Position numbers and translations under genes: made by a program. From Patescibacteria group bacterium UBA2135 (GTDB lineage Bacteria > Patescibacteriota > Minisyncoccia > Phycocordibacterales > UBA2135): 54,880 bases of DNA. The stretch's first letter is position 1, and each line of letters begins with the position of its first letter. Positions 2,801 through 48,222 of the stretch are shown piece after piece. The notes beneath the pieces are model-generated. The model was not told the DNA's origin. It saw only the letters and a list, made by a program, of their open reading frames with translations, and made no database searches. The stretch is from positions 12,170 to 67,049 of the forward strand of contig DCXN01000001.1 in NCBI GenBank assembly GCA_002327685.1, given 5' to 3'.

Positions 2801-2884
2801 GTGTAAAAAGCTTCCTAAAAATATTTCTTCAGTTTTTTCAATATATTTGCTATAAATTACTAAGAGCCTATTCACGATCTCGCG

Positions 2885-3098
2885 CCGAGCCATAAATCTC
2901 GAAATTCAGAGCGAAAATTATGAAAGACGAGGAGGCATATAAAAGCACTACGTCTTATATAAGCTCCTCGGCTCGGCAATCTGAAAAACTCCACTTCGCT
3001 TCGTCTTTCAGATTGCACTCGCTCTACGTCGCTTATCGAGATACGGCGACGAGTTTTGAATAATTTGCAGCCTGAATTTCGAGATTTTGGCCGGCGAG
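2885..3098. repeat. compound multi-hairpin element closed by a long-range inverted repeat
   Basis: Perfect 16-nt arms aaatctcgaaattcag (2894-2909) / ctgaatttcgagattt (3072-3087). Inner hairpins include gcaatctgaaa (2976-2986) / tttcagattgc (3006-3016) and cgaggag...ctcctcg. Confidence 0.85.
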
Positions 3099-3145
3099 CA
3101 ATATTTTCTTCTCTTGCGGCGAGATCGTGAGCAGGCTCTTAGTGA

Positions 3146-14104: not shown

Positions 14105-14105
14105 T

Positions 14106-14230
14106 TAGGACTTACACACTTGGCACATTTCATCGTCAGCTTCGTCGTAGAAACGTTCACTGTACCAATACGTACAGCTTACATTTCTACTCCTCGCTTC
14201 CTTGAACTGCACTCAAGTGCGTAAGTCCTA
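14106..14230. repeat. TIR-bounded element, short copy (TTAGGACTT scaffold)
   Basis: taggacttacacacttg (14106-14122) / caagtgcgtaagtccta (14214-14230), 16/17 complementary. Inner hairpin gtagaaa..ctgtac-caata-gtacag..tttctac. The backbone is shared with 39916-40233. Confidence 0.9.
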
Positions 14231-15327
14231 TGTCAAATGTTTCTTATATGAACTTAGGGTTTTGGGGAAAATTAAAAAAACCGATTATGGCGCTTGCGCC
14301 GATGGCAGACGTAACCGATGCTGCATTTCGGCGGATTATCGCGCGATGTGGCAAACCAAATGTGATGTGGACTGAATTCGTTTCCGCGGATGGTCTTATT
14401 CGCGCGGATAAAGTTGGGCAAGAGAAACTCATGAAAGGTTTGTTGTATAGCGAATCAGAACGACCAATCGTCGCACAGTTTTTTAGTGCAAAACCGGAGA
14501 TGATAAAGCGCGCCGCGAAACTTGCGCAAGAATTGCGATTTGATGGTGTAGATATTAACATGGGATGTCCCGACAGAAGTGTCGAAAAGCAAGGAGCAGG
14601 CGCGGCGCTTATGAAAAATCCTAAATTGGCGCGCGAACTTATTGTCGCGACGCGCGAAGGCGCGCCGCGACTCCCCATCTCGGTAAAAACTCGCATCGGA
14701 TACAATAAAAATGAAATTGAAACATGGATTCCAGAACTTCTTAAAGAAGACCTGGCGGCTATTACTGTTCATCTACGTACTAGAAAAGAAATGTCAAAAG
14801 TACCAGCGCGCTGGGATTTGGCGCGACGCGTAGTTGAAATACGAGACGAAGCAAAAAGTACTACGCTTGTCTTAGGGAATGGAGATGTGCAGGACATGTC
14901 TCACGCGCGGAAATTAGCGCATGAAACAGGCGTGGACGGCATCATGCTCGGCAGGGCAATTTTTGGCAATCCATTTCTATTCTCAAATTCTCCCCGAATA
15001 GTATCTCGCCTGCGGCGGGAACTATGGGGCAAGCAAGAATTTGAGAATAAAAATGGAGATGATTTTGTACGGAAAAAATTAGAAATCATGCTTGAACACA
15101 CGAAATTATTTGAGGAGCTGCTTGGAGGGGATAACCCCATTAGAACTCGCGGGCGTGAAACATGTCCTATTTCTAACGGTGTAAAAAATTTCTCGGTAAT
15201 GAAGAAACATTACAAAGCGTATGCAAACGGCTTTGACGGCGCAAAAGAATTACGCACAAAACTTATGGAAACAAAAAATGCAAAAGAGGTTGAGAATATC
15301 GTAAATGATTTTTTAGAAACTATCTAA
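14230..15327 (+). CDS. tRNA-dihydrouridine synthase
   Basis: LAPMADVTDAAFRRI and INMGCPDRSVEKQGAGAALM (catalytic Cys). Start may instead be Met7 at 14248. Confidence 0.9.
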   Translation: MSNVSYMNLGFWGKLKKPIMALAPMADVTDAAFRRIIARCGKPNVMWTEFVSADGLIRADKVGQEKLMKGLLYSESERPIVAQFFSAKPEMIKRAAKLAQELRFDGVDINMGCPDRSVEKQGAGAALMKNPKLARELIVATREGAPRLPISVKTRIGYNKNEIETWIPELLKEDLAAITVHLRTRKEMSKVPARWDLARRVVEIRDEAKSTTLVLGNGDVQDMSHARKLAHETGVDGIMLGRAIFGNPFLFSNSPRIVSRLRRELWGKQEFENKNGDDFVRKKLEIMLEHTKLFEELLGGDNPIRTRGRETCPISNGVKNFSVMKKHYKAYANGFDGAKELRTKLMETKNAKEVENIVNDFLETI

Positions 15328-16413: not shown

Positions 16414-17460
16414 ATGGCAAATGGTACAGCATTCTACAGAAAGTATCGCCCGCAGGGTTTTGATGAAATTCTGGGACAGGAGCATATTGTAGATGTTCTC
16501 AAAGAAGCGGCGAAAGGCGGCAATATCACGCATGCTTATCTTTTCTTTGGTTCGCGTGGTACGGGCAAAACTTCTGTTGCGAGGATTTTGGCACGAGAGA
16601 TTGGATGCGAACCAGAGGATCTTTATGAAATTGATGCCGCTTCAAACCGCGGCATTGATGATGCGCGCGAGCTTCGCGAGGGAGTAAAATCTTTGCCATT
16701 CAAATCATCTCGCAAAGTGTACATTATTGATGAAGTGCACATGCTCACCAAGGAGGCATTCAACGCGCTACTGAAAACGTTAGAAGAACCGCCCCAGCAT
16801 GTGATTTTCATACTTGCGACGACAGAAGTCGGAAAGATACCAGACACAATTGTCTCGCGTTGTCAGACATTTACGTTTAAAAAACCTACACAGACACTGT
16901 TGAAACAATCAGTACTTCACATTGCCAAAGAAGAAGGATACGAACTCGGGCCGTCCGCGGCTGACTTAATAGCTGTCTTGGGAGACGGATCATTTCGTGA
17001 CACACAAGGAGTATTACAACTTGTCTTGAGTGCCGCGAAGTCTAAAAAAATCGATCGTGAATTTGTTGAAAAAATTACTAGTGCGCCGCCGGCGATACTA
17101 GTTAATGATCTTGTGTCAGCTGTTGCGGAAAAGGATTTAGAGAAAGCGCTTGGGACGGTCAGAAAAGCCGTTGAAACAAATGTTGACTTTACGCTTTTTT
17201 TGAAATTGGTGCTTGAAAAAGTGAGATTGGTATTGTTGATGCGTTTTGATTCTGAGACAAAGAAGAGTATCAAAGAAGAATTTTCAGAAGATGATGTAGA
17301 ATTTCTGGAAGAACTTTCTGGTAAAAAAGGTGAGAATGTTAACTCCGCCTTACTTTCAGAGCTTTTAACTGCGTACACAAAAACTTCTTTTGCGTACATA
17401 AAACAGCTTCCGCTTGAGCTTGCGCTCATTAAAATTTTAGAAAAAGAAAAAACTCCTTAA
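16414..17460 (+). CDS. dnaX: DNA polymerase III subunit gamma/tau (short form)
   Basis: FYRKYRPQGFDEILGQ, Walker A GSRGTGKTS, DEVHML, SRCQ. Met at 16414 fits the family N-terminus; the track ORF begins at 16363 inside a repeat. Confidence 0.9.
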   Translation: MANGTAFYRKYRPQGFDEILGQEHIVDVLKEAAKGGNITHAYLFFGSRGTGKTSVARILAREIGCEPEDLYEIDAASNRGIDDARELREGVKSLPFKSSRKVYIIDEVHMLTKEAFNALLKTLEEPPQHVIFILATTEVGKIPDTIVSRCQTFTFKKPTQTLLKQSVLHIAKEEGYELGPSAADLIAVLGDGSFRDTQGVLQLVLSAAKSKKIDREFVEKITSAPPAILVNDLVSAVAEKDLEKALGTVRKAVETNVDFTLFLKLVLEKVRLVLLMRFDSETKKSIKEEFSEDDVEFLEELSGKKGENVNSALLSELLTAYTKTSFAYIKQLPLELALIKILEKEKTP

Positions 17461-17462
17461 AT

Positions 17463-17510
17463 TCATCACGACATTCCAATATCCGCAAGAATGTCGGAAT
17501 GTCGTGATGA
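17463..17510. repeat. ACATTCC-family hairpin
   Basis: tcatcacgacattcc...ggaatgtcgtgatga (15-bp perfect outer stem, GCAA loop), 3 nt after the dnaX stop. Confidence 0.9.
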
Positions 17511-17527
17511 AGTTTGTGTAGTGTGAT

Positions 17528-18253: not shown

Positions 18254-18298
18254 AGAGCCCCCCTCTTGAATTTTTAAGTTTTTTCAAGAACTTTTTAT

Positions 18299-18338
18299 CA
18301 CGACATTCCGACATTCTTGCGAATGTCGGAATGTCGTG
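18299..18338. repeat. ACATTCC-family hairpin (18-bp perfect stem, TTGC loop)
   Basis: cacgacattccgacattc-ttgc-gaatgtcggaatgtcgtg. The loop is the reverse complement of the GCAA loops at 2780 and 17485. Confidence 0.9.
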
Positions 18339-20041: not shown

Positions 20042-20119
20042 TTAAAGAAGTTCCAGCTTGAGGCTAGTCTGCCTTTGGCAGAGAAAGTGAAGGAAATGAG
20101 GTAGGTTAAAAATTGTTGT

Positions 20120-20222
20120 ATTCTACCAAAATTGAGGAGGATTTTGCTCAAATAATCTCTATTCCATCAAAACCTTGCAAGGTTTTGATGGAATAGGGCT
20201 TTTGAAAAAGGTTCAATTTTGG
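20120..20222 (+). repeat. ~103-nt repeated element with 38-nt perfect palindrome, copy 1
   Basis: attctaccaaaattgaggagg...ctattccatcaaaaccttg|caaggttttgatggaatag (palindrome 20159-20196)...gaaaaaggttcaattttgg. Second copy in the same orientation at 44910-45022. Confidence 0.9.
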
Positions 20223-37382: not shown

Positions 37383-38429
37383 ATGAGTAGAAAATGGATT
37401 ATCTTTCTTGTTGCTACATTCCTGATTATTGTTGCTGGCGTTTTGTATGGCGTGGATCGTTTCAGTAAATTTGGCGGCGGCTCGCTTCAAGAGGGTTCTG
37501 CGGTGCCAGATATAGATCTTTTTGAGGCTGAAACAAATCCGTTTGAGTTTTATAAAAATCCTTTTGGCGCATCCGTGGGTTCTTCAGAGCTTACAGCGCA
37601 GGTAGGTTCTCTTTCTGCGATTACGTTTCCTGTTGCAGAATTAGAGAATTGTACGGATGAAAACGAATGTCGTAAGTATTGCAATGACATGAAGCACGTA
37701 CGCGAATGTGTCGCATTTGCTGAAAAACATAATCTCATGTCTCCTGCGGATATTGCGCATGCGCGAAAATTTGCCGATGTTGCCGGCGAAACACCTGGTG
37801 GTTGTAGAAGCAAAAATGAATGTGACGCATATTGCACAGATATTTCTAATATTAAGGAGTGTGTTGTGTTTGCAGAAAAACACGATGTTTTGTCGCCGCA
37901 GGAGTTAGCAGAAGCACGGCGTATAGCAGATTACATTGCGCAAGGAGGAGAGATGCCAGGCGGGTGTATCCGCAAAGAAGAATGTATGACATATTGCGAG
38001 GATGTGAAGCATCTAGAAGAATGTATTTTATTTGCTGAAAAATCAGGAATGATGCCACCGGATGAATTAGCTGAAGCGAAAAAAGTATTGCCGTTTATAC
38101 TTGCCGGCGAAACACCTGGCGGTTGTGTGCGGAGAGCGGAATGTGATGCATACTGCTCGGAACCTTCTCGCATGGAAGAATGTATAGCATTTGCTGAAAA
38201 GGCGGGTACTATGTCACCTAAAGATCTAGCGCTTGCGAAGAAGGTATTGCCGCTTATACTTGCCGGTGAAACGCCAGGTGGATGTGTCCGCAAAGAAGAA
38301 TGCTTGGCGTATTGCAGTAAACCATCACATTGGGCAGAGTGTCTTGATTTTGCCGAAAAAATAGGATTTATGGGAAAGGCAGAAATTGCACTCTTGCGTC
38401 AGGCATTAAAATTCAAACCAGATTTTTAG
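37383..38429 (+). CDS. secreted/anchored protein with five tandem ~50-aa four-Cys repeats
   Basis: N-terminal TM helix, then 5 repeats of C-x5-C-x3-C-x8-C...FAEK...(M/L)SP..LA.AKK...GETPGG (aa 90-348). The repeats are also visible at DNA level (cttgccggcgaaacacctgg at ~37780, 38101, 38261). Confidence 0.75.
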   Translation: MSRKWIIFLVATFLIIVAGVLYGVDRFSKFGGGSLQEGSAVPDIDLFEAETNPFEFYKNPFGASVGSSELTAQVGSLSAITFPVAELENCTDENECRKYCNDMKHVRECVAFAEKHNLMSPADIAHARKFADVAGETPGGCRSKNECDAYCTDISNIKECVVFAEKHDVLSPQELAEARRIADYIAQGGEMPGGCIRKEECMTYCEDVKHLEECILFAEKSGMMPPDELAEAKKVLPFILAGETPGGCVRRAECDAYCSEPSRMEECIAFAEKAGTMSPKDLALAKKVLPLILAGETPGGCVRKEECLAYCSKPSHWAECLDFAEKIGFMGKAEIALLRQALKFKPDF

Positions 38430-39316: not shown

Positions 39317-39913
39317 ATGACAAAAACAATTATCATTACAGTTATCGTGGCAGTTATTGTAAGCGTACTAACTGCGTTTGGGTTTTCTGAATTTCAGCAG
39401 AGAAATTCAGATTACTTAATTAAAGATTTTTACAATACTGAAACAGCTGTACATGTCAGTCCGCATGGTGTGCGAAAGCATATAGGAGATGGCGAGATAC
39501 TTTTAGTTGATTTGCGAAGTCAGGAGGAGTATGAAACAGAACACATTATTGGCGCGGCTAGCGTTCCCGCATACAAAACTCCTGACGAATCTGCCTACAG
39601 TGAGGTTGATAGGATCGTAAACAGTTTCAAGGAACTTATTGCAGAAAATCCAAACAAAGAAATTGTTGTTTATTGTTACAGTATGCCTTGTATGACCGGG
39701 CGTAAGGTGGGCAAGATGTTATCTGACCACGATGTGTTTGTTAAACATCTAGGAGTTGGATGGCAGGAGTGGCGATATTTCTGGAATTTATGGAACCATG
39801 ATGGTGAGACAAAAGTAAATCCAAAGGATTATGTAATAAGCGGATCAGAGCCAGGTGTGTTTATTGGTGAAGGCGGGTCTGCATGTCCCATCGGTGGTGA
39901 GTTTGGCTGCTAG
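39317..39913 (+). CDS. membrane-anchored rhodanese-domain protein
   Basis: LLVDLRSQEEYETEHIIGA and an active-site-loop region VVYCYSMPCMTGRK. Confidence 0.75.
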   Translation: MTKTIIITVIVAVIVSVLTAFGFSEFQQRNSDYLIKDFYNTETAVHVSPHGVRKHIGDGEILLVDLRSQEEYETEHIIGAASVPAYKTPDESAYSEVDRIVNSFKELIAENPNKEIVVYCYSMPCMTGRKVGKMLSDHDVFVKHLGVGWQEWRYFWNLWNHDGETKVNPKDYVISGSEPGVFIGEGGSACPIGGEFGC

Positions 39914-39915
39914 TG

Positions 39916-40233
39916 TTAGGACTTGCACACTTGGCACATCTCATCGTCAGCTTCGTTGCAGAAAAAACGGACGGGAAAAGGTCTGGCCTTGGCGGAAAGA
40001 AGGCCAGACCTTGAGGAGTCCGTTTTTCCCGCTTCTCGCTTCCTTGAACTAGAGGATGTCGGGGAACCTGCTTTAGTGGCGAAATCTTCAGATTTTGTGC
40101 GAGACGTAGTCAAAAAATTCGAAGAATATAAATATATTTTGAGAAATTTTTGATAAGTATTCGTGCAAAATCTGAAGATTTTTAGCCGGAATGAGGTTTC
40201 TCGACATGCTCAACTCAAGTGCGTAAGTCCTAA
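39916..40233. repeat. TIR-bounded element, long copy with two nested hairpin insertions
   Basis: ttaggacttgcacacttg (39916-39933) / caagtgcgtaagtcctaa (40216-40233). Backbone ggcacatctcatcgtcagcttcgt...ctcgcttccttgaact is shared with 14106-14230. Nested modules at 39963-40027 and 40055-40207. Confidence 0.9.
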
Positions 40234-40405: not shown

Positions 40406-40858
40406 ATGGACACTAAAAAAAATATTGTTGCTTTTATTGCAATTGTTGCTGTTTTCGGCTTATTTTGGGTTATGGGGATGCGTGATGCTATACCAGTTGA
40501 AAATGTAAGTAGAATATTATCAGTACAAGGATTCTCCAATACGGAAATTCTCCCGACTGTTGCAGTTGTGCAGCATGAAGAATTAGGAGAATATTTAACC
40601 AACGGAAACGGGCGAGCTCTTTACACCACCACTAAAGGGGAGTGTAATGGAGATTGTCTTTCGGTGTGGCCTCCTTATCTTACGGACAAAGCAATTCCTA
40701 AAAATAGCGGTCGGCTTGGCACTGTAGAAAATGTCGTAGCTGGAGGGTTGCAATATACATGGGATGAGAAATTACTCTATTATTTTGTGGATGACAGACA
40801 TGCTAGGGATGTAAAAGGGAATGAATCCGGAGGTGTATGGTTTTTGATACAAGAATAA
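40406..40858 (+). CDS. secreted protein with Lipoprotein_15 (COG4315) repeats
   Basis: TM/signal anchor, then GRALYTTTKGECNGDCLSVWPPY and LLYYFVDDRHARD, the signature of that repeat. Confidence 0.7.
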   Translation: MDTKKNIVAFIAIVAVFGLFWVMGMRDAIPVENVSRILSVQGFSNTEILPTVAVVQHEELGEYLTNGNGRALYTTTKGECNGDCLSVWPPYLTDKAIPKNSGRLGTVENVVAGGLQYTWDEKLLYYFVDDRHARDVKGNESGGVWFLIQE

Positions 40859-44738: not shown

Positions 44739-44909
44739 GAACTTTACTCCAATTGTTTTCTATTCAAAATTTATTCCTTTGGGTGGGATAAGTCAACCCC
44801 CAATGCCGTCTTATGGACGGCGACATTTGACCTTTGACATTTTCCGCCCGAGGCGGACCAGCCTTCGGCTGGAACATTTGACCAAGTTATCAATTGTCAA
44901 AAAATCACT

Positions 44910-45022
44910 ATTCTACTAAAATTGAGGTAGATTTTATCTAAATAACCCCTATCCTATCAAAACCTTGCAAGGTTTTGATGGAATAGAGGGTTTAAGAGCG
45001 GGTAAGAAAAAGGTAATTTTGG
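44910..45022 (+). repeat. ~103-nt repeated element, copy 2
   Basis: attctactaaaattgaggtag...ctatcctatcaaaaccttg|caaggttttgatggaatag (44949-44986)...gaaaaaggtaattttgg. Same orientation as copy 1. Confidence 0.9.
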
Positions 45023-47942: not shown

Positions 47943-47972
47943 GGAGCAAAGCGACTATAATTTATTAACCCA

Positions 47973-48180
47973 GCACATAACTTTAACTTAAATTTTTCGG
48001 TCTTAAAGAAGCCAAGGTCCGGCCTTTTCCCAAAAACTGTGCGGCCAGGTCTGGCCTTGAGGAGGAGTGAAACGACGGGAGAAGACCAGACCTTGCGGTA
48101 CAGTTTTCCTCAGTTTTTTCCTCAAGGCCGGACCTAGCCTGCTATTTTTACCGAAAAATTTAAGTTAAAGTTATGTGCTC
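47973..48180. repeat. 208-nt rod-like palindromic element with perfect 30-bp termini
   Basis: agcacataactttaacttaaatttttcggt (47973-48002) is the exact reverse complement of 48151-48180. Inner helices: aggtccggcctt/aaggccggacct (12 bp), aaaactgt/acagtttt, aggtctgg/ccagacct. Confidence 0.95.
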
Positions 48181-48222
48181 GGTGATGATTTTTATACTCG
48201 CTACGCTCGTTAAAAATCTATC

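Follow-up and report, generated by a model that had tools for sequence, protein, structure and literature searches.

A probable composite of nested, transposase-free palindromic elements in the genome of a probably marine patescibacterium

A palindromic element of 318 nt lies at positions 39916-40233 of a 54,880-nt stretch of DNA from Patescibacteria group bacterium UBA2135 (contig DCXN01000001.1, positions 12,170 to 67,049 of the forward strand; the whole stretch is referred to here as the window), and we conclude, with a probability of about 0.78, that it consists of non-autonomous mobile DNA elements nested in one another. Judged from its sequence, the core is a MITE (miniature inverted-repeat transposable element) of the IS701 family without a transposase, and it carries a 65-nt hairpin (module 1) at its centre and a 161-nt palindrome (module 2) near its right end. 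An earlier note on this DNA had proposed either an RNA-level function or recent serial insertion of mobile hairpins. Sequence comparison supports serial insertion for the composite, because the genome holds a graded series of three states of an IS701-type MITE and because parts of module 2 occur independently elsewhere; the qualification "recent" gains no support, the long copy being identical in every assembly that holds it complete. An RNA-level function is not supported for the composite as a whole and is possible for module 2 alone.

The layout of the composite is given in Table 1. The helices which the earlier note had named in modules 1 and 2 are all present in the sequence. An inverted repeat, TTAGGACTTRCRCACTTG, bounds both the long copy (39916-39933 and 40216-40233) and a short copy of the core (14105-14122 and 14214-14231), and this 18-nt end has four matches in the window at up to three mismatches, where 0.2 would be expected by chance. 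The composite folds far beyond shuffled sequence on both strands (z = -11.5 on the plus strand and -10.9 on the minus strand). Public gene callers place no gene between a rhodanese-like gene (39317-39913) and a lipoprotein-like gene (40406-40858), and the short open reading frames (ORFs) inside the composite are therefore best read as artefacts of the repeats, as had been thought.

Table 1. Positions of the composite element, its parts and related copies (window coordinates unless a locus is named)
Feature	Position	Strand	Remarks
Whole composite: IS701-type MITE core with modules 1 and 2 (long copy, 318 nt)	39916..40233	+	From inverted ends, alignment to short and third copies, and fold
Left terminal inverted repeat, 18 nt	39916..39933	+	TTAGGACTTGCACACTTG
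Core, left internal arm	39934..39962	+	Conserved in the CPR subfamily (alignments)
Module 1, 65 nt	39963..40027	+	10-bp stem around a perfect 13-bp GC-rich hairpin
Module 1, outer stem	39963-39972 / 40018-40027		AAAAACGGAC / GTCCGTTTTT
Module 1, inner 13-bp stem	39978-39990 / 40000-40012		AAGGTCTGGCCTT / AAGGCCAGACCTT
Core, right internal arm as far as the module 2 junction	40028..40050	+	CCCGCTTCTCGCTTCCTTGAACT
AACT, left copy of 4-nt direct repeat flanking module 2	40047..40050	+	Possible target duplication
Module 2, 161-nt palindromic element nested in the core	40051..40211	+	
Module 2, left end ("shell A")	40051..40068	+	AGAGGATGTCGGGGAACC; partner 40194-40211
Module 2, 13-bp helix	40056-40068 / 40195-40207		ATGTCGGGGAACC / GGTTTCTCGACAT
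Module 2, 20-bp helix	40082-40101 / 40162-40181		
Module 2, conserved apex	40092..40158	+	88% identity over 67 nt to L041 1382-1448
AACT, right copy of direct repeat flanking module 2	40212..40215	+	
Right terminal inverted repeat	40216..40233	-	Reverse complement TTAGGACTTACGCACTTG
Short copy, core only, 127 nt	14105..14231	+	Follows an FtsQ-like gene, 1 nt from its stop codon
Third copy, core and module 1, 157 nt	L144 2112-2268		Glutaredoxin locus, outside the window
216-nt rod	47968..48183	.	Shares AAGGYCNGRCCTT with module 1 and subterminal TTAAYTTAAWTTTTTCGG with the L041 element

The ends of the core place it in the IS701 family. An exact-match scan with the 17-nt end TAGGACTTRCRCACTTG, covering one genome per species (596 Gb), yielded at least 120 loci, and these had to be inspected individually because a few hundred matches to such a 17-mer are expected by chance in that amount of sequence. 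Among the matches listed, clusters were found in Methanosarcina and relatives, in Anaerolineae and other Chloroflexi, in heterocystous cyanobacteria, in Poribacteria and in several lineages of the candidate phyla radiation (CPR). Most of the matches listed are accompanied by a second, inverted copy of the end at a distance of 60-310 nt. Of the 75 MITE-sized elements taken from them, 39 have an exact 5-bp direct repeat on their flanks, and the matches also include ten elements of 1.06-1.2 kb with the same ends. An ORF at 1689-2699 of one such locus (L064) scores 396.7 bits against the NCBIfam model NF049921, "IS701 family transposase" (cutoff 250), and also matches Pfam DDE_Tnp_1 and DDE_5, and related transposase coding sequence was detected by tblastn in at least six further elements of about 1.1 kb. 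The end is identical in the transposase-encoding elements of about 1.1 kb at L064, L042, L082, L047, L012, L037 and L046, and the published end of ISPlag1, a member of the IS701 group from Planktothrix, reads CAGGACTTACGCAAG... (PMC2464740).

The window copies belong to a subfamily of about 123-126 nt that occurs in Paceibacterota, Saccharimonadia and unclassified groundwater CPR genomes, with a mean column identity of 75% in a nine-sequence alignment and with compensatory changes in the central hairpins that amount to 12 covarying pairs. The copies in the source genome, of 127, 157 and 318 nt, contain no transposase gene. That genome has a G+C content of 40%, and its glutaredoxin and rhodanese proteins have their closest relatives among Parcubacteria/Patescibacteria proteins; it is probably that of a marine bacterium of the Parcubacteria type.

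Two observations on the wider family may be added. The 17-nt end TAGGACTTACGCACTTG is letter-identical in Archaea (Methanosarcina, Methanothrix) and in cyanobacteria, Chloroflexi, Poribacteria, Hymenobacter and CPR bacteria, where it bounds both MITEs and full-length IS701-family elements whose internal sequences are lineage-specific; Methanosarcina has its own subfamily of such MITEs, of about 118 nt and with dozens of copies. Many MITEs of the CPR subfamily carry an open frame of 33-42 codons on the strand opposite to the upstream gene (14105-14231 on the minus strand; L041, L069, L010). The frame starts at an ATG or GTG that lies a little way in from one end (its first residues often being M-Q-F-E...) and stops at a TAA in the other end; it is probably a by-product of the palindrome.

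The source genome holds the element in three states: the core alone, the core with module 1, and the core with both modules (Table 1). The third copy was reached via contigs holding the downstream lipoprotein gene and was confirmed at the glutaredoxin locus in five assemblies, one of them from the same European Nucleotide Archive (ENA) sample as a 135-kb contig that is identical base by base to window positions 29316-49912. Its site GAACTGCACTCAAG is uninterrupted, so that module 2 is absent from it, as it is from the short copy. The glutaredoxin site of a related species (96% identity in the glutaredoxin protein) has no IS701 MITE, and a different 47-nt hairpin occupies its place. At the rhodanese locus the nearest homologue in close relatives is only 71% identical, which precluded an empty-site comparison for the long copy.

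Relative to the short copy, the composite had been described as carrying two extra modules. This holds for module 2, which probably arrived by insertion, while module 1 is not a pure insertion: it replaces a 30-nt central hairpin (CTGTAC...GTACAG) which is present in the short copy and in other subfamily members and which sits at the apex of the MITE's own fold. As reported earlier, the hairpin word of module 1, AAGGYCNGRCCTT, is shared with the 216-nt rod that lies to the right of the composite (seven matches against 0.95 expected). No further relatives of module 1 or of the rod were found by BLAST in about 1 Mb of fetched loci.

The complete composite with both native flanks is identical in the window and in independent assemblies of different samples (L001/L135, L137, L138), and the window sequence recurs in Tara Oceans assemblies. 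It is on the basis of this identity that we reject, as exceedingly improbable, the explanation that palindromes misled the assemblers into creating the composite, even though several assemblies break inside the element (L002, L136, L141) and in others (L139, L140, L142, L148) the third copy's left arm is fused with the right side of the long copy. The latter four sequences, which come from different assemblies, run from the third-copy left arm through module 1 into the right part of the long copy, after which L148 exits into an unfamiliar flank. Either recombination between MITE copies has given rise to such alleles, or the contigs are chimeras that assembly produced at the shared hairpin.

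By its sequence module 2 is a mosaic, sharing its ends with one repeat family of this genome and its interior with a family that is free-standing in other Parcubacteria. Its 18-nt ends (AGAGGATGTCGGGGAACC / GGTTTCTCGACATGCTC) also bound a 165-nt palindrome with an unrelated GC-rich interior (L127 18753-18917) in the same genome, about 8.2 kb past the window end. The relative which matches its interior (Table 1) is a free-standing 161-nt palindrome (L041) between divergent genes of "Parcubacteria group bacterium Greene1014_15", and an IS701 MITE belonging to that genome lies 6 kb away. A 98% identical copy, with other flanks, occurs in a metagenome contig of the Joint Genome Institute (JGI; L125), and in both of these the module 2 apex sits in different shells and flanks. 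A further copy of module 2 itself, with five substitutions and a different right flank, is present in L148, so that the scope of the family is four known copies in two distinct lineages. Its members are rods of about 161 nt, found in marine and groundwater Parcubacteria, with a conserved apex of about 70 nt and stems which have diverged yet still pair. The elements in L041 and L125 begin with GTACCTCG and end with GAGGTAC, with a TA on either side, which is compatible with a TA duplication, although two copies do not prove it. Counted separately, these pieces all occur apart from the composite: the core, the core joined to module 1, the hairpin word of module 1, the ends of shell A and the apex of module 2. 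The idea of separable modules therefore holds.

When metagenomes were scanned with a word from the module 2 apex, L125 was the one true relative among the matches, and the remaining candidates (L123, L124, L126) were rejected as chance matches in unrelated DNA; the same word had no match in the viral collection.

The second claim that had been made for this element concerned its pairing, namely that it deviates from Watson-Crick pairing only by G-U on the plus strand. Minimum-energy folds of both strands were computed, and each pair that forms in one or the other was assigned to one of three classes by its bases on the plus strand, Watson-Crick, G·T or A·C, the last being equivalent to G·T on the minus strand. 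Counts were taken from per-sequence folds, since a MAFFT/RNAalifold alignment of the three module 2 relatives mis-registered the window stems and its covariation counts for the outer stems were discarded. In the two helices of module 2, the four pairs that are not Watson-Crick (40062/40201, 40064/40199, 40098/40165 and 40099/40164) are indeed all G·T on the plus strand, and module 2 overall has a G·T:A·C ratio of 10:0, with fold energies of -78.7 kcal/mol on the plus strand and -50.0 kcal/mol on the minus strand. The corresponding values are 9:0, -75.3 and -50.3 kcal/mol for the L041 relative, and 6:1 with two flanking bases included or 6:0 without them, -78.2 and -56.7 kcal/mol for L125. Over the four known copies, G·T occurs at 19 distinct sites and A·C at none (binomial two-sided p ~4e-6). 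All eight substitutions between close copies toggle between a Watson-Crick pair and G·T, and one pair reads A-T, G·T and G-C across three homologues.

For the element as a whole the claim fails. The helices of the long-copy core contain five A·C pairs on the plus strand, for example 39927/40222 in the terminal stem, against two G·T; the ratio is 0:5 in the short copy (-45.3 kcal/mol on the plus strand and -69.8 on the minus strand) and 0:4 in the third copy (-80.0 and -93.3 kcal/mol), and the nine members of the CPR subfamily have G·U and A·C in nearly equal numbers (10 vs 12). The better fold of the composite on the plus strand (-146.9 vs -124.9) is due to module 2 alone; each of the three cores favours the minus strand. 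Since the core family is balanced and the other rods in the window are also unbiased (4:6, 2:2, 7:4, 3:1), the bias belongs to the module 2 family and is neither composite-wide nor a regional mutation bias.

A mutational origin of the G·T excess, for instance by strand-asymmetric deamination of cytosine on the non-template or lagging strand, is improbable. It would accommodate the fact that seven of the eight close-copy differences are C/T changes on the plus strand, which in the window is the non-template strand of the flanking genes, but the MITE core at the same locus and on the same strand is biased in the opposite direction, three other rods in the window show no comparable excess (4:6, 7:4 and 2:2), and the bias recurs in L125, where the neighbouring gene lies on the other strand. 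Moreover, to our knowledge a ratio of 19:0 far exceeds known strand asymmetries.

We infer a constraint on the module 2 family that acts on a single-stranded hairpin, be it DNA in the course of mobilisation or RNA after transcription. The latter alternative, in which module 2 alone would be an RNA-level unit, a near-perfect plus-strand hairpin of about 160 nt with an effect in cis (perhaps as a target of RNase III or a stabiliser of the transcript in the rhodanese 3' region) or serving as a small RNA precursor, is a minority possibility. It draws on the 19:0 ratio, the pair that varies through A-T, G·T and G-C, the preservation of plus-strand pairing by all eight close-copy differences, the large difference in fold energy between the strands, the conserved apex flanked by variable stems that still pair, and the lack of bias in the other rods of the window, which speaks against a regional mutation bias. 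Furthermore, module 2 lies between two plus-strand genes, and no terminator-like site was found on the plus strand between them. Its orientation to host transcription, however, varies from copy to copy. The window copy follows the rhodanese gene on its 3' side in the sense orientation, the L125 relative is antisense and directly 3' of a minus-strand acylphosphatase gene (E = 1e-23), and the L041 relative lies between divergent genes. This variation weakens a simple role in co-transcription. Nor does the asymmetry single out RNA, because DNA folding parameters yield the same result (-39.5 vs -28.4), so that RNA and single-stranded DNA explain it equally well and are inseparable. The family numbers only four known copies, and no convincing promoter lies inside module 2; scans for promoters and terminators in the composite and the L041 relative gave nothing within the elements above shuffle expectation. 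Searches of Rfam at the gathering score returned only three tRNAs elsewhere in the window, and searches to an E value of 10 gave sub-threshold matches, mostly to microRNA-precursor (long-hairpin) families, which are uninformative.

In the nested-element reading, then, the core would have spread as double-stranded DNA by means of an IS701 DDE transposase supplied in trans. Module 1 would have replaced the small central hairpin in a common ancestor with the glutaredoxin-locus copy, or in one converted to that copy, and module 2 would have landed later, between GAACT and ACTCAAG near the right end. Members of its family would be under constraint in their single-stranded hairpin form, whether in mobilisation or as RNA. 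Nesting leaves the whole foldable, since every insert is a palindrome in its own right, and the product looks like a single designed RNA rod. The module 2 family may, with a likelihood that we would put well short of even, be a new kind of strand-specific hairpin element: either a mobile element which spreads via a hairpin of single-stranded DNA or RNA and prefers sites in or near other palindromes, or a structured RNA hitch-hiking in MITEs.

Several findings weigh against nested mobile elements. No homologue of the IS701 transposase was found by tblastn in the window or in the 10 kb beyond each end (74.5 kb), and current mobility is consequently unproven. Target duplications, which had been envisaged at the module boundaries, are only partly in evidence. 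Neither MITE copy in the window has an intact 5-bp duplication, the short copy being flanked by ATGAT/TGTCA, with no duplication, and the long copy by AGTGT/AACGT, matching at three of five positions; the third copy has a near-perfect one (TTTGT/TTTAT, four of five). Module 2 is flanked by AACT, but its target cannot be rebuilt exactly, because its excision together with one AACT leaves GAACTCAAG, not the GAACTGCACTCAAG that uninterrupted copies read, and an exact target duplication was accordingly rejected. Module 1 is identical at 65 of 65 positions between the long and third copies, while their left arms agree at 42 of 49; identity in the face of 14% arm divergence suggests gene conversion, recent transfer or selection, simple inheritance being a poorer fit. 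With a conserved apex and with diverged stems that still pair, the module 2 family shows a pattern more often seen in structured RNAs than in MITEs moved by a transposase. Finally, all eight CPR-subfamily copies with a readable context (the three in this genome and those in L010, L029, L089, L096 and L113) lie at most 100 nt after the stop codon of a gene, and all eight have the same internal orientation to that gene (sign test p ~0.008), a regularity not predicted for DNA that is purely selfish. In this orientation the transcript would adopt the less stable fold. Two points worth following are the strand-specific module 2 family and the orientation shared by the CPR MITEs.

The same uniform orientation, together with the better plus-strand fold of the composite and the 12 covarying pairs in the central hairpins of the CPR subfamily, would also suit a view in which the whole 318-nt element is one plus-strand gene for a structured non-coding RNA, with the modules as lineage-specific expansion segments. 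We regard this as very improbable. The ends are those of an IS701 transposon, with 5-bp target duplications in many genomes, the modules occur separately, and there is no match in Rfam. The plus-strand advantage stems from module 2, and the core shows the reverse preference in three copies and an equal number of G·U and A·C pairs across its family. Hence, of the RNA-level function proposed originally, the part that concerns the core has fallen away, and the bias that remains, in module 2, would be expected equally of single-stranded DNA.

As an assembly of nested mobile elements, the composite can be compared with several known systems. The IS701 family and its MITEs, for example ISPlag1 of Planktothrix and ISMhu9 of Methanospirillum, have identical inverted ends (TAGGACTTACGCA...), and like these MITEs the composite is small, transposase-free, intergenic and present in several copies per genome. 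The family has 5-bp target duplications; in contrast, the window copies lack intact ones, no partner transposase is present in the 74.5 kb read, and the long copy carries two extra nested palindromes. In the literature searched we found no description of MITEs from CPR bacteria, or of this end sequence beyond ISPlag1.

REPINs and palindromes derived from IS200/IS605 elements are mobilised as single-stranded DNA hairpins by HUH/Y1 enzymes. By analogy, strand-specific pairing and the absence of a clear target duplication would be expected of such elements, and both are seen in the module 2 family. Unlike REPINs, the module 2 family lacks GTAG/CGTC tags, none being visible by eye at the module 2 ends AGAGGATG.../TAGTACC..., and pairs over its full length instead of forming short subterminal hairpins. 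No RAYT or TnpA gene turned up, although no search aimed at them was made.

Nesting of small repeats has been documented for BOX, RUP and SPRITE (PMC3049150), and these pneumococcal repeats, together with enterobacterial BIMEs and Neisseria NIMEs, resemble the composite in being short, palindromic and intergenic, with separable modules and mutual insertion (PMC3049150). They differ in that their sequences are unrelated and in that the nesting described here keeps one overall hairpin and forms no tandem arrays. ERIC and Correia elements are imperfect palindromes of about 100-160 nt which are co-transcribed with neighbouring genes, and their RNA hairpins have an orientation-dependent effect on transcript stability or are cleaved by RNase III (PMC2229807, PMC10969869). 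They would be the models for any RNA-level effect here, and an indirect hint of comparable behaviour is the placement of all eight readable CPR-subfamily copies shortly after a stop codon and in one orientation. They have TA target duplications and sequences unrelated to the composite.

The composite is thus an ordinary kind of genomic parasite and is unusual only in the one-strand pairing of its inner hairpin family. It indicates that the very small genomes of marine Parcubacteria still hold layered relics of non-autonomous transposons, and the graded series from core to one and then two inserts provides a clean example of how the nesting of palindromes yields RNA rods that look designed. Such relics mislead gene callers and break assemblies, several public contigs ending or switching copies inside the composite. 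A single IS701-type end is shared letter for letter by MITEs of Bacteria and Archaea. Should the one-strand pairing of the module 2 family hold in further copies or in transcripts, it would point to a single-strand hairpin lifestyle or a role at the RNA level, in a group of bacteria for which little is known of either regulatory RNAs or mobile elements.

Other repeats of the same general kind are present in and around the window. A 285-nt rod at 2859-3143, just upstream of the tRNA-Trp gene, has outer arms (ACTAAGAGCCTATTCACGATCTCGC / GCGAGATCGTGAGCAGGCTCTTAGT) matching a stand-alone 47-nt hairpin in the glutaredoxin locus of the related species (L149 ~2858-2905), and pieces of its interior recur in L127 17898-17969 and in the L041 element; by its sequence it appears to be another nested mosaic rod, a doll within a doll. 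At L144 ~2440-2590 a palindromic insert of about 150 nt (GACGAGTCCCGTACGAAATCGCGGACG...CGTCCGCGTCCTATTTCGTAGCGGGATG) lies right before the start of a 97-aa ORF, and the related species (L149) lacks this insert. A family of perfect 18-20-bp hairpins (ACGACATTCCGACATTC-TTGC-GAATGTCGGAATGTCGT) follows genes at 2757-2808, 17459-17514, 18292-18338 and L144 ~2070-2110, the last being just upstream of the third MITE copy, and these are likely to be bidirectional transcription terminators. A repeat of about 85 nt which includes a perfect 19-bp hairpin, CCATCAAAACCTTGCAAGGTTTTGATGG, occurs in two copies, 84-86% identical and 24.8 kb apart, at 20119-20203 and 44909-44999.

A 348-aa ORF on the plus strand (37383-38429) has no match in Pfam and contains four tandem repeats of about 159 nt which encode a cysteine-rich motif, G-E-T-P-G-G-C...E-C..Y-C. 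Independent assemblies, including GCA_002688065.1 NZBX01000029.1, JGI Ga0211537_1000148 and others (L128-L134), end within about 1 kb of the window ends at positions 1 and 54880, and gene-free stretches of 0.6-1.3 kb lie just beyond those ends, which suggests that more repeats are located there.

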